From positions 32,001-96,000 of the IMG/VR virus record IMGVR_UViG_3300035190_001334: a DNA stretch of 64,000 bases; one strand, 5' to 3'. Both the position numbers and the translations under genes were made by a program. This stretch comes from a virus. The notes under the pieces were generated by a model, which did not search any database, had not been told where the DNA came from, and worked only from the letters and a program-made list of their open reading frames with translations. Position 1 is the first letter of the stretch; every line of letters starts with the position of its first letter. Positions 21,688 through 63,990 of the stretch are shown piece by piece.

Positions 21688-21834
21688 TTATTTTAACACT
21701 ACCACTTCAGGCAAAGAATCAATCCAGTCTTCAAAAAGTACCGTCATGGCTCTGTCTCTGGACTCGGCGTAATTTTTAAGCTTTGTCATGCGTTTCTCTG
21801 ACAAAGTGGCGTTGAATCTCTTATCTTTACTCAT
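21688..21834 (-). CDS. Ribbon-helix-helix-like small DNA-binding protein (not in ORF track)
   Basis: MSKDKRFNATLSEKRMTKLKNYAESRDRAMTVLFEDWIDSLPEVVVLK; paralog of 10609..10752. Confidence 0.75.
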   Translation of the reverse strand: MSKDKRFNATLSEKRMTKLKNYAESRDRAMTVLFEDWIDSLPEVVVLK

Positions 21835-21892
21835 GATTAGTGTCAATGTTATGTTATACTTACTATTATATCCTAGAAAACGATATTACGCA

Positions 21893-39327: not shown

Positions 39328-40572
39328 TTATGATAGCAGAGATTGTAAAGCTTCAAGTCTAGCTAAATGTGCTTCTTCGGGTGTGTTGAAACTGCCGACA
39401 CGCTTAGTTTTGTTGTTTACAGATATAACAGAGTAAAACTTGTTGTACTTAGGATACACTCCAACAGGTAATTCTCGCTCTTTTTTAGGTTTGTTAAAAA
39501 GTTCTGCAAAAGATTCATCACCATCATAATAATATTTTTCGGCTTTGATACGATGCTCTCTTGCTTCCTCTTCTGTACCAAAGTTACCTACAGAAAATGT
39601 TTTATTGTTGACTGTAATACAGGCTGTGTAAGTACCATGCCCATTTCTACTGACTCCAACGCCTTTACGCTTTTGGTTAGTTTTAGTTTTAGCTTTTGAA
39701 CGCGCAGCCTCTAATTCTTTCTTAAATTCATGTTGTCCATCCCAATATACTTTCTCAGCAAGACTTCTCACTAGACGCGCTTGCTCTTCAGTTTCGTACC
39801 TACCGAGTTCTGTAGTTTTCCCATTGTAAAAAATACTTGCTGCCCAACTTCCACTTTCAACCAAACGTACTCCTAACCCATAGATTCTGGAGTTAGCTAT
39901 ATACTTACCGTCTTTTTCTACTCCTCTTCTGTGGGTAAACAACTCATCTAATTCTGATTGTTTTTCCGCGATACCATCAATATACAATTCTTCGGCAACT
40001 TTTCGTACTTGTCTTGCTAATTCTTCTGTTCTATATTTACCAAGACAAACTTTTTTATTCGTTCCAATCTCAACCTTTATAACTACACCCCAACAATCAT
40101 CCGCGTATTTTGTTACACCAGACCCACGAACTAATCTAGCTTTTGATAACTTTAAACGTGTCTCTTCTGAAACAGCCTTACCAAAATTAGGATTTTTCTC
40201 TCCTTTATTGTTTTCCGACATCTTCTTTCTTGTATTTTCCGATATAGGAATAATTTCAGCATCAGGATTTGTAATCTTCAATACGTTATAGCATAAAGAC
40301 CAGTCCTCTACGCCATCTAAATAAGTTTGCTCTAATTGTCTAATTTCTTTTACTGTAGCGTTTTCCAAAAGTTCTACAATCTCAAAGAAGAAATTATCTT
40401 CTCCGTTTTTAGTGAAAGAAGCCTGTAGTTGCTTATTACCGTGTTTACCTCTTCTTAATCTTGATAAGTGAGTACTTTTTCTGTAATTGAGATTGTTGCT
40501 TGAACCAATGTAATATTTTCCATTGATTTTATTCGTGATTTTGTAAATTCCAGCCGATTTAGGGAAGTCCAT
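39328..40572 (-). CDS. GIY-YIG endonuclease with NUMOD3 and four AP2-like domains
   Basis: GIYKITNKINGKYYIGSS; repeats LGKYRTEELA, LGRYETEEQA, VGNFGTEEEA, VGSFNTPEEA. Confidence 0.9.
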   Translation of the reverse strand: MDFPKSAGIYKITNKINGKYYIGSSNNLNYRKSTHLSRLRRGKHGNKQLQASFTKNGEDNFFFEIVELLENATVKEIRQLEQTYLDGVEDWSLCYNVLKITNPDAEIIPISENTRKKMSENNKGEKNPNFGKAVSEETRLKLSKARLVRGSGVTKYADDCWGVVIKVEIGTNKKVCLGKYRTEELARQVRKVAEELYIDGIAEKQSELDELFTHRRGVEKDGKYIANSRIYGLGVRLVESGSWAASIFYNGKTTELGRYETEEQARLVRSLAEKVYWDGQHEFKKELEAARSKAKTKTNQKRKGVGVSRNGHGTYTACITVNNKTFSVGNFGTEEEAREHRIKAEKYYYDGDESFAELFNKPKKERELPVGVYPKYNKFYSVISVNNKTKRVGSFNTPEEAHLARLEALQSLLS

Positions 40573-40734: not shown

Positions 40735-41982
40735 TTAGGAGATGACAGTTAAACCGTCAGCAGGGTTGAAAGTGGTAAATTCCGCAAGATTTACTGAACT
40801 TTCCAAGTTAGCCAATTTAGCAAATTTACGTGCGCTTCCAGTGCGACCAATAGTAGGAGCCGCAACCAACTGCATACTTGCAGTGTTGGTGATGGAAAGA
40901 GGTGGGTCGCCAGCTTTGGTGTACGTGTTGACGTAGATACCTGCTTTTCCTCCGTTCTCAAGAGTTCCGCCAAGAATACGATTAAACTGACCTTGACGAC
41001 TTAGGAATACTACAGTACCTTCATCAAGTACACGAGTAGGAACTGACTTGCCTTCATTGTCTGTTAGTTCTACATAGTCGTCAACTAAGACGAACTTAGG
41101 TAAAAATCTGCGAGTTAGAACTTCATTAACTTGGTCAATAGAAGGAGTACCAGTAATAACGTTACCGATAACATTAGCTGCAACTACAGCTTCCTTAACC
41201 GACTTACAACGAACCATATTCAAAAGAAGACGTTCGCTAATTGCAATTTCGTCAGCAGGGAACCCGTTAACCCACTTGTAGTTAGAGTGCATATCTACAA
41301 GGTCTTGTAAAGGGTCAGCAGTTTCGTGCTGAGTCCAGTCGCGCTTGAGAGAGTCAACAGTTTCAGTTCCGTTGTAATCCGTTTGATATACGGGCTGAGG
41401 GAACATATTTCTGCGAACAGGCTGAGCTTTTAACCAATTTAACGAAACGTTCAGACCTGTACGACGGTCGGTATACGCCATTTTACCAGTTTGTAGAGTC
41501 TGCCAAGCAAGATAGTCAATCAAATTGATGTGACCACGAACAAGAGAAGCTACAGAACCAAAAATGACCTTAGCCAATTCGTTATCTTGCCCTAACTGCA
41601 CTTTACCTTCAGAAACTTGAATATTCTGAATGGTGATGTTGCGTAACTTAGCGATTTCGCTAACTTCTTGCATACGCCACTGCGTATCTTCATCCCAGTG
41701 ATACGAAATCGCTGCTTTGAAGTTACGAGCTTGAATGCGAGAGAAGTCGCCTTTTTTCGCTTCAGGATAATCCTGACCAGTTGCAACAAGAGACGCAATG
41801 GGGTCTGTGGTTGTCCCAAGATAAGCAAGCCAATCACGACCTGTCTTTTCAATCAAGGGAACATAAGTGTTGAGAACTTTGCTGCGTTCTTTGGTCTGAC
41901 GAAGGGTATTGTTGATAACCAAGTCCGCCGCCTTAGCAGCGCGTGCTTCTTTTAAAAAGCTTTCAATAGGGGACATTGCCAT
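40735..41982 (-). CDS. Major capsid protein (lambda gpE / Phage_cap_E-like)
   Basis: 415 aa; LAWQTLQTGK, W....ADPLQDL, G.PADEIAIS motifs; downstream of scaffold and decoration genes. Confidence 0.85.
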   Translation of the reverse strand: MAMSPIESFLKEARAAKAADLVINNTLRQTKERSKVLNTYVPLIEKTGRDWLAYLGTTTDPIASLVATGQDYPEAKKGDFSRIQARNFKAAISYHWDEDTQWRMQEVSEIAKLRNITIQNIQVSEGKVQLGQDNELAKVIFGSVASLVRGHINLIDYLAWQTLQTGKMAYTDRRTGLNVSLNWLKAQPVRRNMFPQPVYQTDYNGTETVDSLKRDWTQHETADPLQDLVDMHSNYKWVNGFPADEIAISERLLLNMVRCKSVKEAVVAANVIGNVITGTPSIDQVNEVLTRRFLPKFVLVDDYVELTDNEGKSVPTRVLDEGTVVFLSRQGQFNRILGGTLENGGKAGIYVNTYTKAGDPPLSITNTASMQLVAAPTIGRTGSARKFAKLANLESSVNLAEFTTFNPADGLTVIS

Positions 41983-42922: not shown

Positions 42923-43834
42923 TTATAGTCCGAAATCCAGACCCATAGCAATCAAGTCGCCCTTAGCAGCTTCTTCAAGGCTAGATGAGAAATTAGCAGT
43001 TGCAACTTCTTCAGCGCTAACAGAGAAGTCAGTGAACTGAGTCACATTAGCAACATTACGCAATAGAGAGTAAGCAAACTCCGACATATTGAGTTGTTCT
43101 TGCAAATCACGCGCACCGTTAGTTTGAGCGATACCAGTAAACTGAGCAACTCGTTGGCGAGGGTCAGAGAAGTTACCGATAAGAGCTTCCTTCATTGCAG
43201 GGGTGATAACACCGTCAACAACGTCTTGACTAACACGGGCGTTCAAATCGGTCAGTGCTTGAGATAATTGTGCTTCAAAGTTAGCTTGAGAGAATTGGGC
43301 TTCAAGAGCTTCTTTTTCTGCACGAAGTTTTTGGATTTCGCTAACTACTGTCTTATTGAAATTAGCTTGAATTGCTGGGTTGTATGCCGCAGCGTAATTA
43401 GCAGCGTCTTCAGTCATAGGTTCTTCTGCGCCTCCTTCAGCGCCTTCTGTTGCGTATTGTGCTTCTAGAGCTTGGCGGTCTTGTTCTAACACTCCATCAG
43501 CAACTTCGATAAGTTTATCCAAGTCTTCTTCGGTAGCATCAGGGAATGCAGAAATCATTGCTTCCAAATCTTCGACATTATCAACGATGTTTTCGCCACT
43601 AATGTAGCCAGTTACATCTTCTTCGCTTAATCCAGTTGCCTGAACGAGAGCTTGAATACCAGCACTGATTGCAGGGGAAGTATCCTCTGGGTCAGTAATT
43701 AGGTCAGCAAACTGAGCTTCAATAAGGTCAAGCAAGAGTTCGCCAAAAGCATTGGTTGGATTGAGTTCGGTCGCTTGACCTTCTCCTTCTATACCAGCGT
43801 CCTGAGCGCCTAAATCTTGTTGTTCTTCATCCAT
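42923..43834 (-). CDS. Capsid scaffolding protein
   Basis: Acidic, coiled-coil, DGVITPAMKE motif; several ANF/AQF motifs. Confidence 0.65.
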   Translation of the reverse strand: MDEEQQDLGAQDAGIEGEGQATELNPTNAFGELLLDLIEAQFADLITDPEDTSPAISAGIQALVQATGLSEEDVTGYISGENIVDNVEDLEAMISAFPDATEEDLDKLIEVADGVLEQDRQALEAQYATEGAEGGAEEPMTEDAANYAAAYNPAIQANFNKTVVSEIQKLRAEKEALEAQFSQANFEAQLSQALTDLNARVSQDVVDGVITPAMKEALIGNFSDPRQRVAQFTGIAQTNGARDLQEQLNMSEFAYSLLRNVANVTQFTDFSVSAEEVATANFSSSLEEAAKGDLIAMGLDFGL

Positions 43835-43864
43835 TTTTATTATTTTCGTTTTTAGGATTAAAAC

Positions 43865-43900
43865 AATAATGCCACACTAATTTCTCAGCATGGCATTATT
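43865..43900 (-). terminator. Stem-loop (terminator or processing site) upstream of the scaffold gene
   Basis: AATAATGCCATGCTGA-GAAA-TTAGTGTGGCATTATT followed by GTTTT. Confidence 0.6.
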
Positions 43901-43933
43901 TATGGCTTTTTCCCGTAACTGACGTAATGACTG

Positions 43934-45607
43934 CTATTCGATTTCTATAGAGCGTGGAACTGTGTTGGGATTCTTGAATGCGTCTGGATTATCCTTGCGA
44001 CGACTCTGTAAACGTTGGTTAGCTTGATAACGATTGACACCAGCGCCAGCAACTGAACCAACTCCACGACCTACACCAGCACCTAATCCAGTCATACCAA
44101 GTACTTTACCTGCACGACCGACCAAACCTGTGCTTCTTCGTTGCTCTTCTGTTTCATTGATACCAGAACCTTCAAGAGCGCCTAGACCCGCACCAACAGC
44201 AGTACCGACATTAGCGGCATTGATTTGAGGAGATAGATTGCCAAAACGATTTGCAGCACCTCTAGCAACTTTTTGAGCGCCATTAACTAAACCAGTAGGA
44301 ATGATGCCAAACGATGCAGACTTACGGATGCTTTTGCTATAACGAGCTTCGTTTTCTTGTTTCTTTTGTGCCAATTTAGCAGCAAGTAGACCACCACCAG
44401 CAAGTGCAGTACCTCCAACACCGATTGCAGCATATTTAGCTGCCTTATCCGTGTCAAGAACTTTAGCTACAGAGTTAAGCGCATCATGAGTACCTACAGC
44501 CGCTTTAGCAGCCCCATAGTTAACTTTGTCTGCAATACCAAAAGGAAGACTTGCGACAATACGATTACCAGTCACAGAAGCTAAATTACCTCCACCAGCC
44601 TTAGTCGCAGCTTTACGAACCACTTTAGCTGCGGGTTGTGTGATTAATTTGCCAGCAGATACAAGACCTTTATTAATTTGGTCGCCAATGCCAAAATTAG
44701 CTTCTTGTTGACGTTTGAGGAAGTTTGCTGATTTGCGGATTTCTTTATTGAAGTACTTGCCTACTGGCTTGCCCGATTCAATCATCGAGTTGATTTCTTT
44801 TACCCCCATACTTGCAGGTACTTTAGGGTCGCGCAATTTCTTTTTCTGCATCTTGCCGCGCAAAGTTGACTCTAAGCTGACGACTCCAGTATTGTTTTGA
44901 GGGATATATGTGCTTCCGTGTTGGATTAGGCGTTGAATTGTAGCTGGGTCTTGGAAATTTGCTGATTTGCGAATCATTTTACTTAACTCTGTAGTTGAAT
45001 TTACGTTTACTGTGTTTGGTGGGATACCTCCACCTGCTTCTTTTTTCATTCTGACTTTACCAAGCAAACTACCAAAAAATTGCTTAGTAGTTTCTATATC
45101 TTGTTTACCTTTGTTAATAGCTTGGTCAATCAACGGTGTTGGCTCAGGTCGTGTAGATTGACGTAGTAGTTCTTCCGCCATCCTAGCTTCTCTTTGGTCA
45201 AGATTCGGAGCTACAACCTCTTGCACTTTATTTTTTACAGCTTCAACTTCCTTACCAACTCTATTAGCAGCTTTACGAACGCCTCTAGGATTTGCAGCTT
45301 CGTGTTGAGCTACAACAGCCTCTCGTCTTCGTAATTCTAGTTCAGGAGCCACAGCAGCTTTATAACGATTTACACCATATCCAGCCCCAGCACCAAGTCC
45401 AGCACCGACAGTAGAGCTTGTCAGCACCTTACCTAAACGATTACCGACATTAGTAGCTCTCTTTTCTGCATCTGATTCAAATATGCCAGCACCTTGTAAT
45501 AGTCCAAGTCCACCGCCCACACCAGCACCAATTTTCACTGCATTAGGTATGGCAGAAAGAAGTGAGGGAGCGAAGCTGGCTGATTTTCGTAGTAGTTTTT
45601 TAGTCAT
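43934..45607 (-). CDS. Glycine-zipper polyprotein with RKSA(S/N)F junctions
   Basis: RKSASF twice, RKSANF twice, QEANF; two copies of the G-x-G-x-x-E-[ST]...G-x-R-x-GK module. Confidence 0.7.
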   Translation of the reverse strand: MTKKLLRKSASFAPSLLSAIPNAVKIGAGVGGGLGLLQGAGIFESDAEKRATNVGNRLGKVLTSSTVGAGLGAGAGYGVNRYKAAVAPELELRRREAVVAQHEAANPRGVRKAANRVGKEVEAVKNKVQEVVAPNLDQREARMAEELLRQSTRPEPTPLIDQAINKGKQDIETTKQFFGSLLGKVRMKKEAGGGIPPNTVNVNSTTELSKMIRKSANFQDPATIQRLIQHGSTYIPQNNTGVVSLESTLRGKMQKKKLRDPKVPASMGVKEINSMIESGKPVGKYFNKEIRKSANFLKRQQEANFGIGDQINKGLVSAGKLITQPAAKVVRKAATKAGGGNLASVTGNRIVASLPFGIADKVNYGAAKAAVGTHDALNSVAKVLDTDKAAKYAAIGVGGTALAGGGLLAAKLAQKKQENEARYSKSIRKSASFGIIPTGLVNGAQKVARGAANRFGNLSPQINAANVGTAVGAGLGALEGSGINETEEQRRSTGLVGRAGKVLGMTGLGAGVGRGVGSVAGAGVNRYQANQRLQSRRKDNPDAFKNPNTVPRSIEIE

Positions 45608-45609
45608 GG

Positions 45610-46971
45610 TTATCCTTGGTATCTATTGCGTCCAGATTCTCTCAAAATCTTGGTTGCATGGTAAAGTCTAGAATTGTCTTGCTGACCAGTTAAAGATTGA
45701 GGAATAGCTGTAGGTGCTTGGTAGTCATTGTAACTACCGATTGACCTTGGTGAGTAACCTACTTCTTCTCCTGTTAAAGATTGGGGGATGCCTACAGGAG
45801 ATTGATAATCGCCGTTCCATTGAGGAGGAAGTGGCAGTCTTTCGGAAATTTTATCGCGTAAATACTTACCGCTTTTTAAACCATATTCTTTGGCTTGACC
45901 ACCGTAACCTTCAGCTTGTTGGCGTAAGCCTTCAAAGTCAATATCAGGTGTTTCGCCCTTCAAAGCCTTGTAAGCAAGCAAACCACCACCAGCTAAACCA
46001 GCAAGACCTGCTCCAGCACCCAGACGTTGTTTAACGGAAGAGCCTTTAATTGCATCAATAACACCAAACTCAGCTACAGCTTGAATATATGCACGTTTGA
46101 ATTGAATATAAGTAGAATTATGTTTACGTGTGAATTTTGTCATGTTTTTGTTGTTTTTGTTAAAGTGAGAACCTAGTAAATAAGATGTAGCACCTGCCGA
46201 AGCAAGACCACCTCCTACAATACCCAAACCTGTTAAAGCGGCATTTTTAGTATTTTCGCGATTCAGATTATTTAAGTCATTATAGTACCGATTTTCGGTC
46301 TTTTCTTGTTCGCTGTTGGATAATCTTTTATATTTTTTTGAAGGCTCTATTCTGTTTTTGAATCGGTCTACTTTATTGAGGGCATTGTCATATTCTGTGT
46401 CTTTATTGGGTTGTAAAGAGGCTACAAGATTACCTCCAGCTAACCCGCCTAATACTCCAGAACCAATTATATTTTTATATTCGACGTATTTAGTTAGTTC
46501 TTCTGGAGATAAGTCTTGAACGTTATCAGGTAAAGAAAAGAAATTAGCGAAATGTTGTTTGTCGCCACTGAAATCGTTGTTAAGACCGTAACCTAATCCT
46601 ATAGCACCTCCAACTGCGCCAGCACCTAAAGTGCCAACACCGATGCCTTTAGCTTTATTAAGCCATCTGCTAACTTCTGCATCTGATTCTCTATTGCGAG
46701 TCGAGTCACCAATAACTCTATCTCTCTGAACTCTGAGCTTTTGTAGCTCTCTTATTTTTTGTTTCTCTGGTAGGTTGCTTTCTAAGAGTGCGCGAGATTG
46801 TTGGTCGTAGTCTACATTTGCATCAGACTCTCTACCTAAAGAACGAGCTTTACTTCGATAATAAGCATCTTCTCCCCACTTGTTACCGATATATTTACCA
46901 ATAACTCCGCCACCAAGAGCTAATCCTGCCCCTGCGCCAACTCCACCTAATGCGTAATCTTCAAAGTCCAT
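45610..46971 (-). CDS. Glycine-zipper polyprotein with ANF/AEF junctions
   Basis: Three Gly-zipper modules separated by FSGDKQHFANF and FKRAYIQAVAEF. Confidence 0.7.
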   Translation of the reverse strand: MDFEDYALGGVGAGAGLALGGGVIGKYIGNKWGEDAYYRSKARSLGRESDANVDYDQQSRALLESNLPEKQKIRELQKLRVQRDRVIGDSTRNRESDAEVSRWLNKAKGIGVGTLGAGAVGGAIGLGYGLNNDFSGDKQHFANFFSLPDNVQDLSPEELTKYVEYKNIIGSGVLGGLAGGNLVASLQPNKDTEYDNALNKVDRFKNRIEPSKKYKRLSNSEQEKTENRYYNDLNNLNRENTKNAALTGLGIVGGGLASAGATSYLLGSHFNKNNKNMTKFTRKHNSTYIQFKRAYIQAVAEFGVIDAIKGSSVKQRLGAGAGLAGLAGGGLLAYKALKGETPDIDFEGLRQQAEGYGGQAKEYGLKSGKYLRDKISERLPLPPQWNGDYQSPVGIPQSLTGEEVGYSPRSIGSYNDYQAPTAIPQSLTGQQDNSRLYHATKILRESGRNRYQG

Positions 46972-46975
46972 AGTG

Positions 46976-47908
46976 TTATTGATACTTATTAGTTAATTGT
47001 ACATCATCAGCCTGTTTTTGTTTTCTACGCTCGTCATAAGCTTTCTTAAGTGTGTAACCACCATGAACTAGACCGATAGCATTAGCTGCTGCAACTGTTT
47101 CACCTAAACGACTTTTACCTACGTTTGGTAGTGCAGAAGGAATAGGATGTGCAGCTTGTCTTTCTATTTCTAAGCTGCGACCATGAAAGAACCCATCATC
47201 TCTACCCATTTGCTCCTCTAAAGCAGCACGACGTAAAAACGGTTTAGATAAGTCATCGACAAATTTATATTTGCCTTCTGGCTCTACCTTATAAAGCTCA
47301 CCATCTAAAGCTGCCAACCTACCACCGTCCATTGCAGCGTTAAGAGTAGAGTAGAAATTTTTCTGAGGTAATCCGAATTTATATTTGTAGGTAACAGGCT
47401 CATCGTATTCTCTTGTAATTACTAAGGAGGGGTTGACAACACCCTTTTTAGATAAACTTTCATAATTTTGCCTGATGTTCTTGTCACTAATTAAATCTTG
47501 AAAACTAGGGTATCTTGGAATGTTAGATACATCTACATCCTCACCACTGACTCCAGCAGCGTTTGCCGATAGTATTGTTGGGTGAGTGTGAGCCATTTGT
47601 AGATTCTCAAGACCTCCTAAGTTGTTGGGGTAGCCTTTTACCCAAGGAACTATTCTATCAAGTGGAATTGACGTTGAAATAGCTTCTTTACTCGGAAGAT
47701 TAATTGCATCTTTGAAAGTACGATTACCTAGTGTGTTTATGTAGTTCGCAGAAGTATAGCCGACCTCAGAATTTGGATACTTACTGACTAAACCTCGCAA
47801 ACTATTCTCTGCATGGTCTTTTAGGTTAGGGTATTCATCTACAGATTTACCTGTAAGATTTTCTAGATAGTCGTCCCAACTAATACCAAAATTTACAAAG
47901 TGTCTCAT
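46976..47908 (-). CDS. JAB/JAMM-like metalloenzyme candidate with N-terminal HFVNF tag
   Basis: MRHFVNF start; NSEVGY...AHTHP...YPSFQDL matches E...HxH...SxxD. Confidence 0.55.
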   Translation of the reverse strand: MRHFVNFGISWDDYLENLTGKSVDEYPNLKDHAENSLRGLVSKYPNSEVGYTSANYINTLGNRTFKDAINLPSKEAISTSIPLDRIVPWVKGYPNNLGGLENLQMAHTHPTILSANAAGVSGEDVDVSNIPRYPSFQDLISDKNIRQNYESLSKKGVVNPSLVITREYDEPVTYKYKFGLPQKNFYSTLNAAMDGGRLAALDGELYKVEPEGKYKFVDDLSKPFLRRAALEEQMGRDDGFFHGRSLEIERQAAHPIPSALPNVGKSRLGETVAAANAIGLVHGGYTLKKAYDERRKQKQADDVQLTNKYQ

Positions 47909-47910
47909 AG

Positions 47911-49611
47911 TTACAAAGCACCCCAATTTACATTTTTCAATCCTGTTCGCAACACAGACTTAACATCACCATTCAAAGCCGCATCAATAATCCGATTACG
48001 AGAACCGTCATCGATTACATCCCCTTTAGCTTTTGCTATTAATGCGCGACGGAGTTGCTTATCCTTAATTGCGTCAAGAGCAGCAAGTTTTTGTGCCTCG
48101 AACACCTCTTCTTGTTGGTCAGCAGCCTTTTTTCTATTGTAGATACCGTAAAGTGTACCTCCAATAGCTAAGCTTGGGGTAATTAGTGGGTCGAAAAAAT
48201 TTGCAGTATTAGAATTGTCGTTGAATTGTAGCTGAGTACCTACTAAGTAGCCTTCCCTAGCTAAGGAGCCTCCTACTAACCCCCCAGCCATACTAGCACC
48301 TAAATACTTGCCAGTTCTACCTACATTTTGGAAGTACTTATCTCTCAAACTTCCTTGTTGAAGTTTTTTTTCTTCGGGAGACAAGTTATTGAATCTTTGT
48401 AATTCATCTACAAATTCTTGGTTTTGGTTTTTAAATTGCTCCCTAGAAGTGCCAGTCAGTCTTCGTGCGACACTCCCACCAAGTAAAGCACCGCCAATAC
48501 CTGAACCTAAATAACCAGCACCATATAGCAACTGAGCATCTTCAGGAGACATAAACTCAGCAATCTTGCCTTTACTTCTAGAATACCGAGTAGTCTTGCC
48601 TTTTCTTTTCTGCACTTCGGCTTGCTGTGCAGGAGTAAGTCTGTCAAGAGGATTATCCGTAATACCTTGAAGTAAAGGGTTGCCAGTAATATTAGCAGCT
48701 TCGCGAATCAAGTTGTCTGCATGGTATTGAGGACTGTCGAAATAGCTAGCTGCAAAGTCTTGAGCATTTTTATCTTTGAGGCTATTTACCTTGTAGGCAT
48801 CAAGCGCTCTTTGTTTGTTGAGCTTAGATAGCAAACCATACCCAGCAACTAATGTACCTCCGATTGCAGCAAGTGGAAGTGCTTTTTCTTTTTTAATGAA
48901 GAAAGGGTTACGAACACCAATCTTAGGAAATGCGAAGTTGGCTGGTGTAACTAAAGGGGCAGCACTAAAAAAGTTGTATGGCACTCTCACCTGAGTTTGA
49001 GGTTGTTGGGCTTGCGCTTGACGTTGTTCCAATAGTAGATTCCTTTTTGCAATTATTTCTTGTACTTTGTCGCGGTGAGCTTGAGCCTGAGCTTGTTTTT
49101 CTTTCTCTGCTTCTTTAGTTTTATGATTTTGATATAGCAAAGCCCCCGCCGCTAAAGGTGCAACAGTTAAACCTCCAAGAGTACCGACAACTGCTGCCTC
49201 ATTAGCCCCAAATTTATCAATTAATTTGTTAGATACATAATTTACAGCAGGAGCAACTAAAGGGAGATTGCTATTTGCATATTTATCCCGAAGTCTTTGG
49301 GTTTCTGCCTTGGCTACTCTAGCTTTTTTAGCTACTGCTCTATCACCTTGAGCATTTCCGATTTCAGTTGATGTTGGCTCAGGGGCTTTAGGTGGCTCAG
49401 AAGCCCGTCTTTCGCGTTCACGCGCTATTTTGGCGCGTTCCTTCATAACAGCTTCTTCATTCATCTGCTGTTGACGAGATTTTCCTCTGGGGCGATTATC
49501 TTTCTGCTTTCTAAAGAAAGGGTCATTCCCCCAGTTAGTTTCCCTCCCCTCCCTATTGTTAGGGGCGTATTTCTGTTGTCTAGCCGCAAACTCAGCTTTC
49601 AAACTTAACAT
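47911..49611 (-). CDS. Glycine-zipper polyprotein with ANF/AEF junctions
   Basis: KAEF, VTPANF, KIAEF and NTANF separate four modules, each with a Gly-rich hydrophobic helix. Confidence 0.7.
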   Translation of the reverse strand: MLSLKAEFAARQQKYAPNNREGRETNWGNDPFFRKQKDNRPRGKSRQQQMNEEAVMKERAKIARERERRASEPPKAPEPTSTEIGNAQGDRAVAKKARVAKAETQRLRDKYANSNLPLVAPAVNYVSNKLIDKFGANEAAVVGTLGGLTVAPLAAGALLYQNHKTKEAEKEKQAQAQAHRDKVQEIIAKRNLLLEQRQAQAQQPQTQVRVPYNFFSAAPLVTPANFAFPKIGVRNPFFIKKEKALPLAAIGGTLVAGYGLLSKLNKQRALDAYKVNSLKDKNAQDFAASYFDSPQYHADNLIREAANITGNPLLQGITDNPLDRLTPAQQAEVQKRKGKTTRYSRSKGKIAEFMSPEDAQLLYGAGYLGSGIGGALLGGSVARRLTGTSREQFKNQNQEFVDELQRFNNLSPEEKKLQQGSLRDKYFQNVGRTGKYLGASMAGGLVGGSLAREGYLVGTQLQFNDNSNTANFFDPLITPSLAIGGTLYGIYNRKKAADQQEEVFEAQKLAALDAIKDKQLRRALIAKAKGDVIDDGSRNRIIDAALNGDVKSVLRTGLKNVNWGAL

Positions 49612-50630
49612 CTAGCTGTACCTCGTACATACTTCTTGGTTGTGCCAATTGACAAGTTGAACTGAGCCAACTTATTACTACCACGCTTATAAGTAGTTTG
49701 TTGCTGTAATTGTGGAATTGTCATGCCACTCTCAGCACCACCTTGCAATTGAGCCTGAGTTTGTGCAGCTTGGTCTTGCTGAGTCATTACGCCAGCTTGT
49801 GCTTGCTGATTCATTTGTTGCATTAACTGAGTCAAACCGAGCAGTTCGATAATCTTGACACTGAACCCATTTAACTGAGAGTAAATCAATTGCAACAACA
49901 CTTCTGGGCTATCAATGTTAATCGCATCGTTGTCATAAGCATTTTTGAGCAAGAGCCACAATTTCTGGCAAATTTCGTTGTATTCGTCTTGAAGGTCGTC
50001 AATTGCTTGGTCATTAGCATCAAGCTCATCCCAAGTTACTGCGTTGCCACTATCTGGTATTCCAGAGAAGTTAGCGGTCATTGCTTTGCCCACTTTTTTA
50101 TGAAATAGTCCCATGTTAGGAATTGCAGGAATAGGTACAAGGCTGAGTTCCATGATGCGATGTTCGTTAGGGTCAAGGTTAAGTCCCATGCTAACGCTCT
50201 TGACACCACTACGCAATGCTTCAATACCTTTAGCTGCTGCAACCTTTACGCCACTTAAGAACATCCCAAGCTTGCCTACTAAATGCTTGGAATTTTGGTT
50301 TGGTAAATCTGCTTCCGTAATTACTTTTGTGAACGCTCGTCCTGAAATACTTCCAATAGTATTTGGAATATCTTTTTTGTGGTCAGCACAAACAGGTACA
50401 ACTGTGCCGCTATCGATAGCTCGGTTGGTATGCTCAACGATTGTATTGAGACGTTCGGGACTAAATTCGTGTTCAACATCAGTACTATCGGTAAACTTGC
50501 CTTCAGTGGCTACAAGAGCCGTGTACTCGTCTTTAATAGGAGTGCCAGAAACCAACACCTGCCCCAACTCAAAGTTGGCTCTTGATGCTGGGGCTTTAAA
50601 ATAAGCGATATTAGGTGAGGTTTTTTTCAT
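49605..50630 (-). CDS. Prohead protease (Mu gpI-like)
   Basis: EGKFTD, VPVCADH, KSVSMG, ELSLVPIPAIPNM motifs; upstream of scaffold and MCP. Confidence 0.75.
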   Translation of the reverse strand: MKKTSPNIAYFKAPASRANFELGQVLVSGTPIKDEYTALVATEGKFTDSTDVEHEFSPERLNTIVEHTNRAIDSGTVVPVCADHKKDIPNTIGSISGRAFTKVITEADLPNQNSKHLVGKLGMFLSGVKVAAAKGIEALRSGVKSVSMGLNLDPNEHRIMELSLVPIPAIPNMGLFHKKVGKAMTANFSGIPDSGNAVTWDELDANDQAIDDLQDEYNEICQKLWLLLKNAYDNDAINIDSPEVLLQLIYSQLNGFSVKIIELLGLTQLMQQMNQQAQAGVMTQQDQAAQTQAQLQGGAESGMTIPQLQQQTTYKRGSNKLAQFNLSIGTTKKYVRGTARC

Positions 50631-50674: not shown

Positions 50675-50914
50675 ATGAACGACAAGTCACTCTTTAACCA
50701 GCAAGTCGGGGATAAGCTACGCCGCCTTCGTAAAGCCAAGAACAAATCTCAGGCTAGTGTCGCCGCAGATTTCTCTTTTGGGCAAGATGTTGTTAGTGAG
50801 ATTGAACGTGGGGTAAAAACAATCAGTGCATTTGAGTTGGCAGCTTTTAGCGCGTATTACGAGAAGCCTATCGTGTATTTTTACATGAACTCGCCTCTAC
50901 CCTCTAAGAAATAA
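50675..50914 (+). CDS. XRE-family helix-turn-helix regulator
   Basis: VGDKLRRLRKAKNKSQASVA...VSEIERG. Confidence 0.85.
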   Translation: MNDKSLFNQQVGDKLRRLRKAKNKSQASVAADFSFGQDVVSEIERGVKTISAFELAAFSAYYEKPIVYFYMNSPLPSKK

Positions 50915-52496
50915 TACTGACACTTCGAGCTACCTTATTTACAATATTCTTTTCTGCCCCAACAAAATTGAGTGCTTCAAGTCCTGATTCTACTATGCGG
51001 GGTAAGTTGGCTGCATCTGGTACGGGCAATCGAGGTGTTGTAAACGTCGAGTAAATAGCTTTGGCTGTGGCATTGCCTAGTGATTTGTTAGATGCTAGTA
51101 GTGCAAGTCCAGCGACGAATGCAGTAGCAGCGATAGCAATCTTAATTGGTGTACCTAAGCCGCCTTGTGGTGGACGATTTGGAGGTTGTTTTTTAGGGTC
51201 AAAATCTTCTTCGTCAATGTCTTCCGAGAGCGAGTAATAACACATACAACTACAATGGAAAGGTATAGAAGGTTTGCTGTGATTCCGCCACACGGTAGGG
51301 TTTCCGCGTTTGTAGTTAATAACATCCCCTCCGCTTCTTTGATTCTCTATTATCTCGAACAAGTAGTATTCAAGACCATCTTGAAGTTCACAATCTTCAC
51401 ATGGTACTGGGTCAGTTCTCTTACTTCCACTTGCTAATCTCTTGTACCTACTAATCAGTGCGTATTCCCTATCAACATTCCATCTAAAGCGTTTGTATCT
51501 ATCAGCTTTACCTCCAAATGCCGCTACCTTCCCGAAGTTGTATGCAATTGCCAACTCGGTCTTCACAATTACATCTGGCGACTGTTGCTTAAACGCGCCT
51601 TGCAAGCCTTGCTGGTCTTTGTTGATAATGTTCCTAATCCTTACTTTGAGAAGGTTAAGGTCGTATTCGTACTTGTTACGTTGAGATTTGATGTTAGTGA
51701 TGTACTCTCGATTATCAGCTAAGAATAATGCAACAGCCTTACGAATTTGCTTGTTACTTTCGGCTGAGTATGATGTTTGCAATACTCGACGACGCTTACC
51801 TAAGTAGTTACTTGATATGAAGTTCTGTTTCTCGTCGTTATTACCATATAAGAAGTTCATCATGGCAGCTTTACCTGCATTAGTGCTGTCACTAATCTTG
51901 TTGAGCATATAGACATTACGAGAGACTTCATCAGCTATCTTGACACGCTCTTGTATCTTGGCAACATCGTTAATATTCGTTTGTTCAGCACGTTGATTAA
52001 GAAGGTTGTTAACTGCATTGCGGGTCAAACTATACCTAATCTTATTTTTGTTCTCTGCCTCGTAACTCTTTGGTGCTGCGGCAAACTCTACCGACAGTTC
52101 CTTGGTGTCTTCTGTTATTACTTGCGTGTCGAAGTATTTACGAATATCATCATCGCCATACTCGTACAAATAGTCGTACATCTGATGTCTCAGCGCCAAT
52201 TTAATCATTGACTCGAAGTTAGTAGTCAGAACTTTACCGAACTCGACCTGCACCTTAGCAAAATACTTGTTAGTGATATCACTCACATTCTTTTCTGCAA
52301 ACTTGTCGAAGATGGTGCTTGGTACTTCATAGATGCTGGTATTCGATTTGGCAATCCACTTAGCTAGTTCATCGACAAAGGTGTTCTTAGCAAAGTCACT
52401 GTTGATTGCTCTGCGAACTTGCAGAACTGACTCAGCCAACGCTTTGAAATATTCTTGCGTCTTGAACTCTTTGAAGCTATTGGACTGTTTTCGCAT
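50904..52496 (-). CDS. Head morphogenesis protein (Mu gpF / SPP1 gp7-like)
   Basis: IVKTELAIAYNFG, CEDC..QDG, IPFHCSCMC; hydrophobic segment near the C-terminus. Confidence 0.75.
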   Translation of the reverse strand: MRKQSNSFKEFKTQEYFKALAESVLQVRRAINSDFAKNTFVDELAKWIAKSNTSIYEVPSTIFDKFAEKNVSDITNKYFAKVQVEFGKVLTTNFESMIKLALRHQMYDYLYEYGDDDIRKYFDTQVITEDTKELSVEFAAAPKSYEAENKNKIRYSLTRNAVNNLLNQRAEQTNINDVAKIQERVKIADEVSRNVYMLNKISDSTNAGKAAMMNFLYGNNDEKQNFISSNYLGKRRRVLQTSYSAESNKQIRKAVALFLADNREYITNIKSQRNKYEYDLNLLKVRIRNIINKDQQGLQGAFKQQSPDVIVKTELAIAYNFGKVAAFGGKADRYKRFRWNVDREYALISRYKRLASGSKRTDPVPCEDCELQDGLEYYLFEIIENQRSGGDVINYKRGNPTVWRNHSKPSIPFHCSCMCYYSLSEDIDEEDFDPKKQPPNRPPQGGLGTPIKIAIAATAFVAGLALLASNKSLGNATAKAIYSTFTTPRLPVPDAANLPRIVESGLEALNFVGAEKNIVNKVARSVSIIS

Positions 52497-52534: not shown

Positions 52535-53092
52535 ATGACACAACTTACACCCGAACCTTACGTCGATACCGTAAGGAAGCAGAAAGAGAAAGACCTTATC
52601 AATGTGACTAAAAAGACGCGCAAGCACATACCAGCTTACGTTTTCCAAGCTCATGCCAATTTACTTGAGCGATTTCCAGACTCAGGACATTTTCTAACTC
52701 CAGCATTTGTCTACCAAACACTTCGCGAAATTACCAAGGCAGCTAAGGCTCAACTATGTGCTGATGAAACTTCGACCATTGACATTTTTGGTTTGGGCAA
52801 ATTAGTACTACTCCGCAAGAAAGCATACAGGAGCGAAGACAAGACCAAGCAGCAACTATATTTGAAGTTCAGGCACTCCAATGTCTTCTTGTATGAAATT
52901 CGCAGACATCACGGTACAGCTACACCAGCCGAACTCAAGATGCTGGAAAAGTCTGACAACTATATGAAGGAATTGCAAGCCAAACGGGAGAAATTTTTAC
53001 GCGAACGAGAAATGAAGAGGAAGGGTGAACTGGATGAACTTGACCCAAGCAATTATTTGAGTCAATTTTCAGGTGTTCTTGACCTTAATTAG
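52535..53092 (+). CDS. HU/IHF-like DNA-binding protein
   Basis: IDIFGLGKLVLLRKKA...LKFRHS resembles the HU beta-arm signature. Confidence 0.5.
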   Translation: MTQLTPEPYVDTVRKQKEKDLINVTKKTRKHIPAYVFQAHANLLERFPDSGHFLTPAFVYQTLREITKAAKAQLCADETSTIDIFGLGKLVLLRKKAYRSEDKTKQQLYLKFRHSNVFLYEIRRHHGTATPAELKMLEKSDNYMKELQAKREKFLREREMKRKGELDELDPSNYLSQFSGVLDLN

Positions 53093-56000
53093 ATTGCATA
53101 AGCACTACTAGGTGGTGCAAAGCTTGCACCGTTGTAAAGCGAGATTCTTCGATACACCACAAAAGAATCCAAGTTGATGTTCAAGCCGCTTGTAGTTATT
53201 GCAGTGGCTTGTCCTATTTGTGCAGGTGTATTCCAGTCACGGTACTCGTAGTCATCAGCAGCTTCGTATACTCGAACTCCACCAACATACAACCTTAGTA
53301 TTCCATTTTGTCTTGTCAGAGCAATGTGGTTGAATACAGTCGAGGATAGGGACAAAGCTACAGAAAAGAGAGCAAGCCCAAGTATTAGAGAGCGCCCTAA
53401 GTATAATCGGTCGGCAGAAAAGAACAGTGAGAGTCCTTGTTGTGTGTAGATGTTAACCACCTCACCATTGGTAGCTTGGTCAGTAAGCAGCCAACCCGCA
53501 ATTGTAAAATCGCCCGACAGAAAAGAGAAGTCTGAGTCATTTGGTATTTGCACATAAGCTGGTACACTGTTTTTGGAAATAGGAAAGCTAGCGGCTCCGA
53601 ACTTTTTGGTAACGGTGTCAAGTACCGAGATGTTGCTGGTCAAGGTCTTGGAGCGATAACTTTGGTCAATAATACTGCTATCGAAGTTCAGTAACGTAAC
53701 TATTTTAGCTGGCTGGTAGTAGTCGCGAATGCTTCGCTCGATGGCAGAAAAAGAAGTTGGACTAATCTTGTAGTCCACAATACAAAACATGGCTACACTG
53801 CCTTTTACACTCCTGTCCTCGAACACCCTGTCCTTAGCAATGGAATTGATGGTAACTAGGTCAGTTGAGTTGAAAATGACTACGCTTAACGATTCTTCAG
53901 GTAGCACATAATCACGCTCTCTTTCTGCCCCGTTCGCCCAAACGTCCCCGTAGAAGTCATTTGCCAGTAATTCTCCATTGTTCCCAGAATTGAAAATGTT
54001 GTTGCTATCCTGACCAAATAAGAAAGCTGCACCAGTTTGCCCTGCTTTGCGAATGTAAGCCATGACGAAGCAGTAACCACTACTTGTGCTGGGAGTGCCG
54101 AAGTCGAGGTGCGAAGAGCCATCTATCTCAAATCGAGCCGCAGGTAGTCCATCGAGTTGAGTTGGTGTTGTGTAATTCACTGCGTTCGTCGATATTAATT
54201 CCTGACCATTTGTGCGATACTCATCAAGTTGAAGTATGTTGCCGCTTGATAGTGTAACGGTTTCAGGTGTGACGATGAAAAATGAACTGAAGGTATTAAG
54301 CAGTCCTTTCAAGTTGATGTAAAGCTGATTAGTAAGTAAAGTGATGCTGACGTTAAAACTGAAAGTGACAGACTCGGTAGCTGTGTAGGTTCGGATGGTG
54401 AAACTGATAAAATCGTCGGTCGGGCAAGTGAATGTAAGGTCGTTGCCAGTTATTGTTGCCGAGTAGTGGTTGACCAGTATTTCATAGCTGACTGCATTAC
54501 CAGCAATTTCAGTGACCTTTTTGTCGAGGTTAACAATAACGTCAGAGCTATACCTGAACTCAGTTGAAGTGTTAAACAACAGTAAAGTAGAATCAAAAAA
54601 CTTGTTGGCTAGTAAGTGTGTAGCTTCTGCAAGTTCAGCTTCGCTCAATGCAACAGACCAGCCAATGAAATACAGTAGTTCCCCTTTCAGTTGAGAAGAG
54701 AATCCACTAAAGCCTATTGAAGAAGTTGCATTAGTAGCCGCGATGATTGCGCCGTAGTCTATGGGTTGGCGATAATTAAAAGTATTGACCCCAACTTTGT
54801 TGACTTTTGTGTTCAACTGCGTTATAGCTGTAGTTCCAAACACATCATCACTGGTTCCTGTAGTCCAAAGAACACCATTGGCAAATATATCTGGAAAGCC
54901 GTTAGCCATGAAGCGTTCACCAGTTTGTTTCTGCTTATATACCCAAATGAAGGTTTTGCAATTGACTGAAGTGCCTGAGAGTGAACGAGGATTGAGAGAA
55001 CTATTGGTGATGAAGGAAGAGGTCGTACCGTTGTAAGTTATTTGGTTGACCGAATCGGCTGTGCTGGTGACGTACAGAGGCTTATCAGGTAATCGGCGTG
55101 AGTCTTCCCATTTAGTTATGTTGCCAAAATTATCGGTGTAAATTCCGTAAGGTATGTCATCTACATCTTTTAACGTGGAAAGTGATACCGCTATGTTTGA
55201 TTGTTGTGGTAAGTCAAGAATAAAGGGGTCTGCTATTACAGTTTCTAGTGAAAAACTAAAATAAGACACCATACTATTGCTGTTAGTGATGCTGATGCTA
55301 AAACTACCATCAAAAACTTCAGGTATATAACCTGATAAAACTGAACCTGTGAAGCTTAGTCCTAAGCCACTTGGAGATATATAGCTGTACGAAGTGATAT
55401 CAAAAAATTCGTCAATTGCAATAGTCGCAAAGTCAAAGCTAAAATAAGCCCCAACAAATGCTCTAAATGAAGGTTGAGATGAAATAACTACACCATTGTA
55501 AGCAATATATATTTGAGCTAACTTAGCTTCTACTGATGCCAATATATCTAACGGGCAAGGTGATGATGATGTGATGATTGCAGCTATTTTTCCACGAACA
55601 CTGAAGTTGCTAGTCCCATTTTTACCCCCAAAACCTGTAATAGTTTCATACTCGTTGCTATTGGATATGTTGGTGACACTTAAAATTCTTGAGGTGTTAA
55701 GGGGAACGAACGTTGTTGGTGCTACTGCTCGACTATTTATTCTTGATGTGGCATTGTAAATAGAGTTGCCAGCTAAAGGCTGCTCTGACCAAAGCGAAGC
55801 GCCACCAGAAGGAAAAGCATCATAAAGAAAAGGTGGGTCGCCTAGTGTTTGACGAGGGGCATATATTAGAAAACTACCTGACTCCCTTGTAAGGTAAACG
55901 AGAATAATTGTACCTACATTGATAGGTCTGTTGAAAAATAGTTGTTGATTACCAGTATCTGAGAAGTTTATGCTTGGCTGATTATTAAACTGGCTATCAT

Positions 56001-56241
56001 TAGGTATTAATGTAGGTCTATTGCTTGTAGCTTGTAGATAGTTACCATCGAAAAGCAAGTTGTAAATGGTTTGGACTTGATTGTTGTCTCCAGTAGTACC
56101 TATCTTCGAGAACTCTAGATATTCTGGGTCACATAAATACAGACCATTCAAATCTGGTATTAACTTTGCAACGTCATAAACCTGACTAGTATATGAGTAA
56201 CCACCAGAAAAAGAATGATTAAATGCTGCCGATAATTTCAT
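53089..56241 (-). CDS. Multi-LamG-domain tail fibre/adhesin
   Basis: Three internal lectin-like repeats plus a C-terminal LamG (DFTIAGW, HIALTRQNG.LRLYVGG). Confidence 0.7.
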   Translation of the reverse strand: MKLSAAFNHSFSGGYSYTSQVYDVAKLIPDLNGLYLCDPEYLEFSKIGTTGDNNQVQTIYNLLFDGNYLQATSNRPTLIPNDSQFNNQPSINFSDTGNQQLFFNRPINVGTIILVYLTRESGSFLIYAPRQTLGDPPFLYDAFPSGGASLWSEQPLAGNSIYNATSRINSRAVAPTTFVPLNTSRILSVTNISNSNEYETITGFGGKNGTSNFSVRGKIAAIITSSSPCPLDILASVEAKLAQIYIAYNGVVISSQPSFRAFVGAYFSFDFATIAIDEFFDITSYSYISPSGLGLSFTGSVLSGYIPEVFDGSFSISITNSNSMVSYFSFSLETVIADPFILDLPQQSNIAVSLSTLKDVDDIPYGIYTDNFGNITKWEDSRRLPDKPLYVTSTADSVNQITYNGTTSSFITNSSLNPRSLSGTSVNCKTFIWVYKQKQTGERFMANGFPDIFANGVLWTTGTSDDVFGTTAITQLNTKVNKVGVNTFNYRQPIDYGAIIAATNATSSIGFSGFSSQLKGELLYFIGWSVALSEAELAEATHLLANKFFDSTLLLFNTSTEFRYSSDVIVNLDKKVTEIAGNAVSYEILVNHYSATITGNDLTFTCPTDDFISFTIRTYTATESVTFSFNVSITLLTNQLYINLKGLLNTFSSFFIVTPETVTLSSGNILQLDEYRTNGQELISTNAVNYTTPTQLDGLPAARFEIDGSSHLDFGTPSTSSGYCFVMAYIRKAGQTGAAFLFGQDSNNIFNSGNNGELLANDFYGDVWANGAERERDYVLPEESLSVVIFNSTDLVTINSIAKDRVFEDRSVKGSVAMFCIVDYKISPTSFSAIERSIRDYYQPAKIVTLLNFDSSIIDQSYRSKTLTSNISVLDTVTKKFGAASFPISKNSVPAYVQIPNDSDFSFLSGDFTIAGWLLTDQATNGEVVNIYTQQGLSLFFSADRLYLGRSLILGLALFSVALSLSSTVFNHIALTRQNGILRLYVGGVRVYEAADDYEYRDWNTPAQIGQATAITTSGLNINLDSFVVYRRISLYNGASFAPPSSAYAI

Positions 56242-62895: not shown

Positions 62896-63613
62896 CATAG
62901 AACAAAAGCTGCAATCACTACGCAACTTAAATAGTGAACAGCCCGAAATGCAAAAGATAACAGTACATAAACTCAGCAAAACAAGTTGGGTAAATTGGAC
63001 TGATATTAAACGCGCATATATTCTTGGCAAGCGTATCGAGGAGTTCGACGAGGAGACTGGACACACGCGGATTTGGTCTGAGAGCTACAATCTGCAAGAA
63101 CTTGCTGAGGAGTTTGGTGTTGGAGTTAGTCAGCTAACCAAGAAGTCGGCTACCGAAGGTTGGGGCGGATTGCGCGATAGTTACTTGGCGCGAGTACAGG
63201 AAGAGGCGCTAGGCACTGAGCTTGGTTATTTCACCAACGAGGAGAGCGAGACTGAGGCAAACAGCTTGGCTATCATTCGTAAGGGCATGAAACTGATTAA
63301 CTTAGGGCTTGAGCAAGAGTATGGCGACTTACTTGAGGCTGTGGACGCTGATGGTGATGTGGACTTGCGCGAGTATAGTAAGGTCAACTTGAAGGCGCTG
63401 ACTGAAGGAATCAAGGGGCTGAAGATGCTGCATGAGATGCATGGTAAGGTGATGGAGCAAGCACCTAAGACTAACCAAGAGCTACTGGAGCAACTGAATC
63501 GTAGCAAGACGGTTGAGAGGCTGAAGAATCCTAAAGAGCGCGAGAAATTGCAAAAGGAGCTACAAAAGAAATTGCAACTCCTTAGTCAGATAGAGGAAGA
63601 TGATGAAGATTAG
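62885..63613 (+). CDS. Terminase small subunit candidate (HTH plus helical)
   Basis: W..IKRAYI.G ... LQELAEEFGVGVSQLTKKSATEGW...R pattern typical of TerS N-terminal HTH; near terL. Confidence 0.55.
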   Translation: MTNNIEQKLQSLRNLNSEQPEMQKITVHKLSKTSWVNWTDIKRAYILGKRIEEFDEETGHTRIWSESYNLQELAEEFGVGVSQLTKKSATEGWGGLRDSYLARVQEEALGTELGYFTNEESETEANSLAIIRKGMKLINLGLEQEYGDLLEAVDADGDVDLREYSKVNLKALTEGIKGLKMLHEMHGKVMEQAPKTNQELLEQLNRSKTVERLKNPKEREKLQKELQKKLQLLSQIEEDDED

Positions 63614-63990
63614 TCGTCGATGTTGTTACGGCGATAGTACTTAGCATTTGCATAGGCATCTTTTAACCCTTCTTTGGCTACGCCTCCTGTAAAACCAAGT
63701 CCACCACCGACAATTCCGCCAACACCCGCATTGCCGACTAATTTACCTAATCTCCCCAAGCCTGTAGTTCTAGCTTTTTCTTCTTCTGACTCTCCAACAC
63801 CCGAACCTTTAACTAGTCCAGCAGCAGCCCCAATACCAGCACCAATTTGTACTCCTCTGTTCTGTGCAAAGGCTTGACCTACTCCCTTGGCTGCACTGCC
63901 AGCATCTTGAACGTTGTGCCAATAAGGACGGGCTTTATCTACTATTGCAGGTAAGGGATTTGTGAAACCAAAATTAGCGAAATGTTGCAT
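63610..63990 (-). CDS. Glycine-zipper protein with N-terminal QHFANF; putative internal virion protein
   Basis: MQHFANF; IGAGIGAAAGLVKGSGVGESEEEKARTTGLGRLGKLVG. May extend beyond the window edge. Confidence 0.65.
   Translation of the reverse strand: MQHFANFGFTNPLPAIVDKARPYWHNVQDAGSAAKGVGQAFAQNRGVQIGAGIGAAAGLVKGSGVGESEEEKARTTGLGRLGKLVGNAGVGGIVGGGLGFTGGVAKEGLKDAYANAKYYRRNNIDD

Follow-up and report, generated by a model that had tools for sequence, protein, structure and literature searches.

The window analyzed here (64,000 nucleotides; bases 32001–96000 of the 145,466-base virus record IMGVR_UViG_3300035190_001334) is, by its sequence, part of the genome of a cyanosiphovirus of the Pam2/PA-SR01 kind, and a short peptide of the form A-x-F (Ala, any residue, Phe) recurs in the proteins of its head gene block at 42923–50630. 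We consider it fairly probable that this peptide is a combined capsid-targeting and cleavage signal for the predicted prohead protease encoded at 49605–50630. The best reading of the signal has Ala, Val, Ser, or Thr at P3, any residue at P2, and Phe at P1, with putative cleavage after the Phe; it often follows an aromatic residue, as in MQHF-x-N-F, and also appears as (L/I)RKSA-x-F. Behind the proposal stand the enrichment of the motif, the fold of the protease, conservation across the protease family, coincidence with module borders, and association with virions; the binding of the signal, the scissile bond after Phe, and the action of the cargo are inferred. The major capsid protein (MCP) of the window is 95% identical to those of the Pseudanabaena phages Pam2 and PA-SR01, siphoviruses of 137–143 kb with heads of ~100 nm (PMC9382816), and the open reading frame (ORF) at 49605–50630 is 93% identical to its counterparts in the two phages.

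In the proposed sequence of events, the signal, placed in an N-terminal leader of 5–20 residues, between polyprotein modules, or at the C-terminus, would recruit its carriers into the procapsid. After shell assembly the protease would cut past a Phe at P1, with a small residue at P3 and a free P2. Self-cleavage at 20, 188, and 324 would detach its leader, helical scaffold-like domain, and tail, and the protease would also fragment the acidic scaffold (isoelectric point, pI, 4.1), enabling the scaffold's exit. About a dozen basic Gly-zipper modules would be freed from four hypervariable cargo genes and retained in the head; the cargo may neutralize DNA charge or may act as ejected membrane-active proteins, both roles being guesses. 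The fullest version, in which a Phe-specific assemblin-fold protease and a portable A-x-F leader of 5–12 residues load and release shuffled Gly-zipper peptides that are ejected with the DNA, and do so across the clade, is more speculative and somewhat less likely than not.

The A-x-F motif and its carriers

The head genes lie on the minus strand in the order protease, four ORFs, acidic scaffold-like ORF, 302-aa (amino acid) ORF, and MCP, and the order protease–cargo–scaffold–302-aa protein–MCP is kept in the window and in remote loci. The features concerned, with the putative cargo numbered from the protease onward, are:

49605–50630, minus strand: predicted prohead protease, 341 aa; matches phrog_976 "head maturation protease" (E 5.7e-5); assemblin/gp21 fold in the model
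47911–49611, minus strand: putative cargo polyprotein 1, 566 aa, pI 9.9; leader MLSLKAEF; predicted sites after 8, 226, 353, and 472
46976–47908 (ORF to 47926), minus strand: putative cargo protein 2, 310 aa from Met7; leader MRHFVNF, with Val at P3
45610–46971, minus strand: putative cargo polyprotein 3, 453 aa, pI 9.3, 18 GxxxG; KQHFANF (142–144) and AEF (300–302)
43934–45607, minus strand: putative cargo polyprotein 4, 557 aa, pI 10.4, 21 GxxxG; (L/I)RKSA(N/S)F/ANF after 12, 218, 296, 305, and 433
42923–43834, minus strand: acidic scaffold-like protein, 303 aa, pI 4.1; six A-(N/Q)-F at 40, 157, 179, 184, 230, and 280
40735–41982, minus strand: major capsid protein (context); phrog_29, E 1.3e-19

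The motif strings and ORFs agree with their earlier description. ANF occurs 11 times in the six ORFs of 42923–50630 (2536 aa), where composition predicts 0.56 (Poisson P 2.6e-11), and is the most extreme outlier among all tripeptides of that block (runner-up GAG, 8e-7), so the enrichment over background that had been proposed is real; in the other 17,888 aa of the window the count is 6 versus 4.2 expected. The broader pattern A-[NESQ]-F behaves alike, with 20 occurrences versus 2.11 expected in the block (P 1.7e-13) and 22 versus 15.4 in the rest of the window, and the middle residue of A.F is N, Q, E, S, or Y at 21/21 block sites. P3 extends beyond Ala to Val, Thr, and Ser in the leaders of Pam2 virion proteins. 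The bipartite form of the motif stood as far as its upstream aromatic residue is concerned (F, Y, or W at −4 to −12 at 15/18 sites versus a 45% background; P 0.001), but this half is weaker than claimed and is partly due to repeated modules.

The window contains 17 ANF tripeptides in ten ORFs, as originally counted; the description of all ten as head-associated or Gly-zipper ORFs fails for 9887–10552, which encodes a GIY-YIG homing endonuclease and whose ANF is therefore probably due to chance. The tripeptide is absent, as had been noted, from the 1891-aa tape measure and the 1643-aa fibre. The proteins of the full genome (~42,900 aa) contain 21 ANF, and those beyond the block lie mostly in Gly-zipper ORFs. 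Four dispersed carriers in the window are:

14309–15055, minus strand: dispersed carrier, 248 aa; body running to ...FQHFANF (152–154), then a 94-aa Gly-zipper module
228–920, minus strand: basic Gly-zipper protein, 230 aa; ANF at 15–17 and 218–220, the latter ten residues from the end
63610–63990, minus strand: Gly-zipper module after MQHFANF; the ORF leaves the window and in the genome is 313 aa long, with the motif internal (192–194)
8163–8330, plus strand: small ORF, 55 aa; start MMKHFTHF, with GANF ten residues on

Pam2 gp46 aligns to residues 18–154 of the 14309–15055 product and stops exactly after ANF, at a point where the window protein goes on, which places a module junction directly after the Phe. 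Both ANF sites of the 228–920 product recur in Pam2 gp57, at residues 15 and 238. A possible counterpart of 8163–8330, an ORF of uncertain role, is Pam2 gp52 (MKHFVCF), by a likeness seen by eye only. The leaders M(Q/E/I/R)HF-x-x-F, M..KAEF, and MxKK..KxA-x-F stand before unrelated sequences. A-x-F as a general way of ending an ORF was considered and rejected; only Pam2 gp46 and gp169 end so.

The protease family and module borders

The predicted protease consists of an N-terminal leader, a catalytic domain, a helical scaffold-like domain, and a short basic tail, with A-x-F sites at residues 9–11 (AYF), 18–20 (ANF), 186–188 (ANF), and 322–324 (AQF). AlphaFold supplied with a multiple sequence alignment gave a model with a predicted local distance difference test score (pLDDT) of 75.6, a single-sequence run being unusable (pLDDT 38). 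In this model residues 33–178 (catalytic; pLDDT >90 over most of 40–170) and 200–295 (helical) are folded, and residues 1–32, 179–199, and most of 296–341 have a pLDDT <50. The A-x-F sites fall, 4/4, in these low-confidence, predicted disordered segments; ANF18 and ANF186 occupy the disordered flanks of the folded 33–178 segment, so that the first two motifs do bracket the catalytic domain, as had been stated. The model matches the protease (assemblin) of varicella-zoster virus (VZV; Z 11.0, 119 aa, root-mean-square deviation 3.5), T4 gp21 (5jbl; Z 9.5, 122 aa), and the human cytomegalovirus protease (Z 8.3), scores that exceed those of unrelated helical entries, and its top Foldseek matches are nearly all herpesvirus proteases, with weak E-values of 0.01–0.1. 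As modeled, the product of 49605–50630 has the assemblin/T4 gp21 prohead-protease fold, in line with the identity first assigned to it, and protease activity is predicted.

A PDB sequence search with the protein and its profile returned no relevant match, and no Pfam family was found for the protease, its homologues, the cargo, or the scaffold. The original prediction called the protease Mu-I-like, a description that survives only in part: HMMER found no PF10123 (Mu-like_Pro) match in the protein (E≤0.01), in 71 homologues, or in a six-frame translation of the whole genome (E≤10), but a published HHpred assignment links PA-SR01 ORF24 to PF10123 (E 4.5e-18), which suggests remote kinship only, and in one remote locus Portal_Mu and a faint Phage_Mu_F match adjoin the protease gene.

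Searching 1.84 billion representative proteins yielded 163 protease homologues (clusters at 50% identity), of which the 71 just mentioned, about 25–60% identical to the window protein, form the family alignment; 42/71 match phrog_976, and H84, S147, E161, and S163 are invariant, the first two being the candidate catalytic His and Ser. Homologues bear A/S-x-F at the same three places, namely the leader, the linker, and the stretch after the helical domain. The linker site directly precedes the conserved ALTW(D/E)E opening of the helical domain (e.g., SANF followed by ALT, KADF followed by ALT), and the third site is an AEF past that domain, followed in many homologues by a Gly-zipper and a basic tail. 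Per 100 aa, A.F occurs 2.19 times in the leader, 2.87 in the linker, and 1.09 in the tail versus 0.34 expected, a 3–8-fold enrichment, and it is depleted in the folded domains (catalytic 0.18, helical 0.06). Enrichment of linkers combined with avoidance of folded domains is the pattern expected of a self-processing site, and it upholds the proposed tie between the motif and the protease.

The same tie is found in remote loci, whose proteases are ~27–35% identical to that of the window and in which the motif nevertheless recurs with a different leader context. In locus L014 (protease P0049), no tripeptide is a stronger outlier than AEF (15 versus 1.04 expected; P 5e-13), and eight small ORFs have a leader whose terminal AEF falls within the first 12 residues, mostly M..(L/M)GDY(T/A/V)AEF, usually followed by xRGxDKxPRKRR and a Gly-zipper; these eight have a pI of 10.4–11.9, most with several GxxxG. 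Three more ORFs contain similar leader copies internally, as does the tail of the protease. In L019 AEF is the second-ranked tripeptide, and three other loci have a modest excess of it. The clade is large and almost wholly uncultured: among 50,697 phage records searched by tblastn with three family members, only Pam2 and PA-SR01 carry the protease, and these are its only isolates.

The original prediction also placed the motifs at boundaries between repeated modules, and both sequence repeats and the gene histories of relatives agree with it. Cutting at the motifs gives fragments that are homologous by BLAST: residues 145–302 of cargo 3 match residues 354–472 of cargo 1, and fragments 13–218 and 434–557 of cargo 4 are repeats whose Gly-zipper module is also common to the ORFs at 63610, 14309, and 228. 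A homologue search with this module returned nothing of similar length, and the ESM Atlas gave viral hypotheticals only. When the 43934 family is aligned with 7 relatives, none of the five sites departs from A and F, P2 is N, S, E, or V, and the flanks are 64–95% conserved; L002 and Pam2 have extra modules inserted between motif copies, and fusion to an upstream protein in L004 and L007 turns the usual start, M.KK..RKSA-x-F, into an internal linker. These insertions and fusions fall at IRKSA(N/S)F.

Among 13 close relatives (loci L001–L013, protease >92% identical) the cassette 43934–49611 is hypervariable in gene number and size, and the motif persists. The region between protease and scaffold is a hotspot of module shuffling: in nearly every relative it is different, with 3–5 ORFs of 149–696 aa, and in PA-SR01 it also holds a DEAD/DEAH helicase on the opposite strand. 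The predicted cuts would divide the products of three cargo genes into 11 fragments of 78–218 aa (pI 7.9–11.1), to which the 310-aa protein is added, so the "roughly a dozen" cargo polypeptides of the original prediction are arithmetic on predicted sites. The ORF 46976–47926 appears motif-free until its start is set at Met7, when the Val variant of the leader, MRHFVNF, appears. Its product also contains AHTHP-x10-SGED, which resembles a JAMM/MPN metal site, with no Pfam or PHROG match; in the ESM Atlas it meets RadC/JAB clusters at low template-modeling scores (0.31–0.34 by query; 0.63 by a 150-aa MPN entry), and by sequence it could be a packaged metallopeptidase.

In remote loci, scaffold homologues lie between protease and MCP, and they have two conserved A-x-F sites in common with the window scaffold: (E/M/L)A(E/N)F and DR(V/F)A(A/Q)F(S/T). 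At scaffold sites 179 and 184, N and Q interchange among relatives; AQF40 is probably not a site, since most relatives have AQY there. The predicted cuts would leave scaffold pieces of 5–117 aa.

Virion proteins of Pam2

The presence or absence of proteins in virions was taken from the Pam2 mass spectrometry (PMC9382816, Table S2), and all statements on Pam2 virions refer to that table. In Fisher tests that count paralogues as separate events, ANF-bearing Pam2 ORFs are detected more often than others (9/16 versus 18/175; P 3.6e-5), as are proteins starting with M.HF..F (7/9 versus 20/182 of the rest; P 1.6e-5), which supports the expectation that motif proteins are associated with virions. The detected starters are gp39, gp41, gp42, gp44, gp118, gp186, and gp187, with A, V, T, or S at P3 of the leader; gp118 and gp186–189 lie among non-structural genes, and some leader genes are 100 kb from the head module. 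Virions also contain cargo gp15, cargo gp17, gp19 (the homologue of the 302-aa protein), and the MCP, as well as gp46 and gp57; the protease gp14, the scaffold gp18, and gp52 are undetected (PMC9382816). Of the cargo, gp15 is syntenic with cargo polyprotein 1 and has the leader MSLKAEF, and gp17 is homologous to cargo 4. The sections of the Pam2 paper that were searched (PMC9382816) give no sign that its authors noted the shared leader.

The detected protein gp189 (40801–41769 of locus L022; 140801–141769 of ON014754) is named "casein kinase I-like" and has an internal MQHFADF at 191, by which it resembles two leader-delimited modules; a kinase-like protein may thus be packaged. Other Pam2 product names ("botulinum neurotoxin type A/B," "neurexin," "receptor tyrosine phosphatase delta") seem to be artefacts of weak hits and should not be taken as toxin genes; the scores behind them in the authors' table are modest, namely a BLASTp E of 8.3e-08 for gp3 and HHpred probabilities of 0.97–0.998 for the others.

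Known systems, alternative explanations, and genome context

In T4, gp21 recognizes L/I-x-E and cuts behind the Glu; the capsid targeting sequence (CTS), 10 residues long, ends in the same motif, and gp21 also processes itself and the scaffold. This system, with its CTS on IPI-III and Alt, is like that of the window in the fold of the protease (5jbl) and unlike it in having Glu rather than the proposed Phe at P1, in lacking sequence similarity, and in its cargo, which in the window consists of multi-module Gly-zipper polyproteins from a hypervariable cassette, in a siphovirus with Mu-like head order. Encapsulin cargo-loading peptides are likewise short and portable and send unrelated cargo into an HK97-fold shell, but they are C-terminal, uncleaved, and without a protease partner. 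Herpesvirus assemblin (V/L-x-A followed by S) provides the best structural matches and is also a Ser-His protease fused to scaffold with self-cleavage sites in linkers; it differs in its P1 Ala, its eukaryotic virus, and the lack of a cargo leader system. Mu gpI and P2 gpO share the protease followed by a helical scaffold-like domain and the order protease, scaffold, MCP, whereas the window has a separate scaffold gene and a protease unmatched by PF10123 in HMMER.

The T4 CTS is cleaved (PMC10052503), and SPN3US gp245 cuts after A-X-E (P3–P1), with itself and many head and ejection proteins among its substrates (PMC10052503). phiKZ gp175 and SPN3US gp245 (A/S/G-x-E) resemble the proposed system in their small P3, free P2, and defining P1, in having many sites per substrate, in the protease dropping its own C-terminal part, and in the processing of abundant ejection proteins (PMC10052503); they differ in a P1 of Glu and in propeptides of mostly 111–254 aa, where the window has Phe, leaders of 5–20 aa, and inter-module sites too. 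The simplest reading applies the logic of T4 and SPN3US with Phe at P1, targeting being followed by cutting, and by analogy the T4 precedent suggests that the peptide is both cut site and tag. Literature searches on A-x-F or Phe-specific prohead proteases, on Gly-zipper head cargo, and on a Pam2 structure brought up no earlier description of the motif, and cleavage motifs are not covered in the JBD30 paper.

The original prediction left open whether the peptide is a cut site or a packaging tag; the parts of it that were tested came out in its favor. A pure targeting or docking tag, never cleaved, which binds the scaffold, the helical domain of the protease, or the inner capsid and leaves the cargo at full length, seems to us rather unlikely, although it accommodates the N-terminal, internal, and C-terminal positions of the motif, the enrichment of leader proteins in Pam2 virions, the presence there of gp46, which ends in ANF, and the several copies per protein, which could allow multivalent binding. 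It leaves unexplained why, over the set of 71 homologues, the protease's own three disordered linkers hold the motif and its folded domains avoid it, why genes fuse and split exactly after the Phe, and why the motif-rich scaffold and the protease are missing from virions; the P3-x-P1 form, moreover, agrees with the specificity pattern known for this protease fold. Cleavage by another peptidase is improbable. Host Prp cuts the capsid and scaffold leaders of 80alpha after Phe-Ala in Firmicutes, and the 46976–47908 protein, with its HTHP-x10-SGED and weak RadC/JAB structural neighbors, would be a candidate besides a host enzyme, but its JAMM-like gene is not conserved, the slot being filled by ORFs of 149–309 aa in close relatives, and none was recognized in remote loci, whereas the motif tracks the assemblin-fold protease family and sits in that protease's own linkers. 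Slighter still is the likelihood that the motif signals nothing and is a by-product of duplicated modules and paralogous Gly-zipper ancestry, an explanation already disfavored: many carriers are indeed paralogous modules and IRKSA(N/S)F is repeated within one protein, but the flanks of the motif are unrelated in protease, scaffold, cargo, and the 310-aa protein, A and F stay invariant while neighbors vary, folded domains are depleted, and remote loci with ~27–35% protease identity have the motif in another leader context.

Several findings weigh against a signal that both targets and is cut. The three family positions carry A-x-F in 38/71, 33/71, and 63/71 homologues, the remainder lacking it, and the preference for small residues at P1' is weak (10/20 sites versus a 27% background; P 0.02). 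Pam2 gp16 (ANF164) and gp37 (MQHFADF) are undetected in virions, and the Pam2 table records presence or absence, without cleavage products. The leader proteins gp39–44 and gp187 are paralogous, with ~20 residues in common after the leader, so the Fisher tests overcount independent events; gp39–44 stand amid tail genes, and a tail location is conceivable for the whole group. The motif of gp46 lies at the very C-terminus with nothing to remove, which favors a binding role or the relic of a deleted module and implies that binding alone can suffice at some sites.

Elsewhere in the structural region, processing of the MCP at AEF400 was considered and rejected; the site is missing in five relatives and the 47-kDa band of PA-SR01 matches the full-length protein, so the MCP is probably not processed. 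Immediately after the MCP gene, 39328–40572 (minus strand) encodes GIY-YIG, NUMOD3, and AP2 domains and is a recent insertion into the structural module, since Pam2 has just a 216-nt gap there. It is one of three GIY-YIG homing endonucleases in the window (with 9887–10552, minus strand, and 21788–22672, plus strand), two of which match phrog_314. The sole portal-like gene, 8327–9859 (minus strand; weak PF04860, E 1.9e-6), lies ~40 kb from the protease–scaffold–MCP block, and its Pam2 homologue gp50 is annotated as portal by HHpred. Upstream of the protease, the 530-aa ORF 50904–52496 belongs to no recognizable family, and 53089–56241 (minus strand), between the terminase region and the protease, encodes a 1050-aa protein with a C-terminal Laminin_G_3/concanavalin-like domain (E 4e-9), whose Pam2 homologue is named "adaptor" and is negative in virion mass spectrometry.

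The proposed system departs from known combinations of a prohead protease with targeting propeptides in its P1 residue, in a protease family for which Pfam has no model, and in multi-module cargo encoded by a hypervariable cassette. Cleavage rules of prohead proteases are known for few model phages, and those of the T4 and phiKZ/SPN3US lineages end in Glu; the small-x-Phe rule is a prediction from sequence for a family with two cultured members, and it can be tested directly in those two phages. It would recast the Pam2 virion proteome, in which about a dozen "hypothetical" virion proteins have one common leader, would account for the hypervariable protease–scaffold cassette as cargo, and offers a simple rule for annotating packaged proteins of related metagenomic phages. 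If the fullest version of the proposal is true, the ejected Gly-zipper peptides would act on the host envelope or DNA, and the leader would provide an existing tag with which foreign proteins could be loaded into the capsids of these phages.

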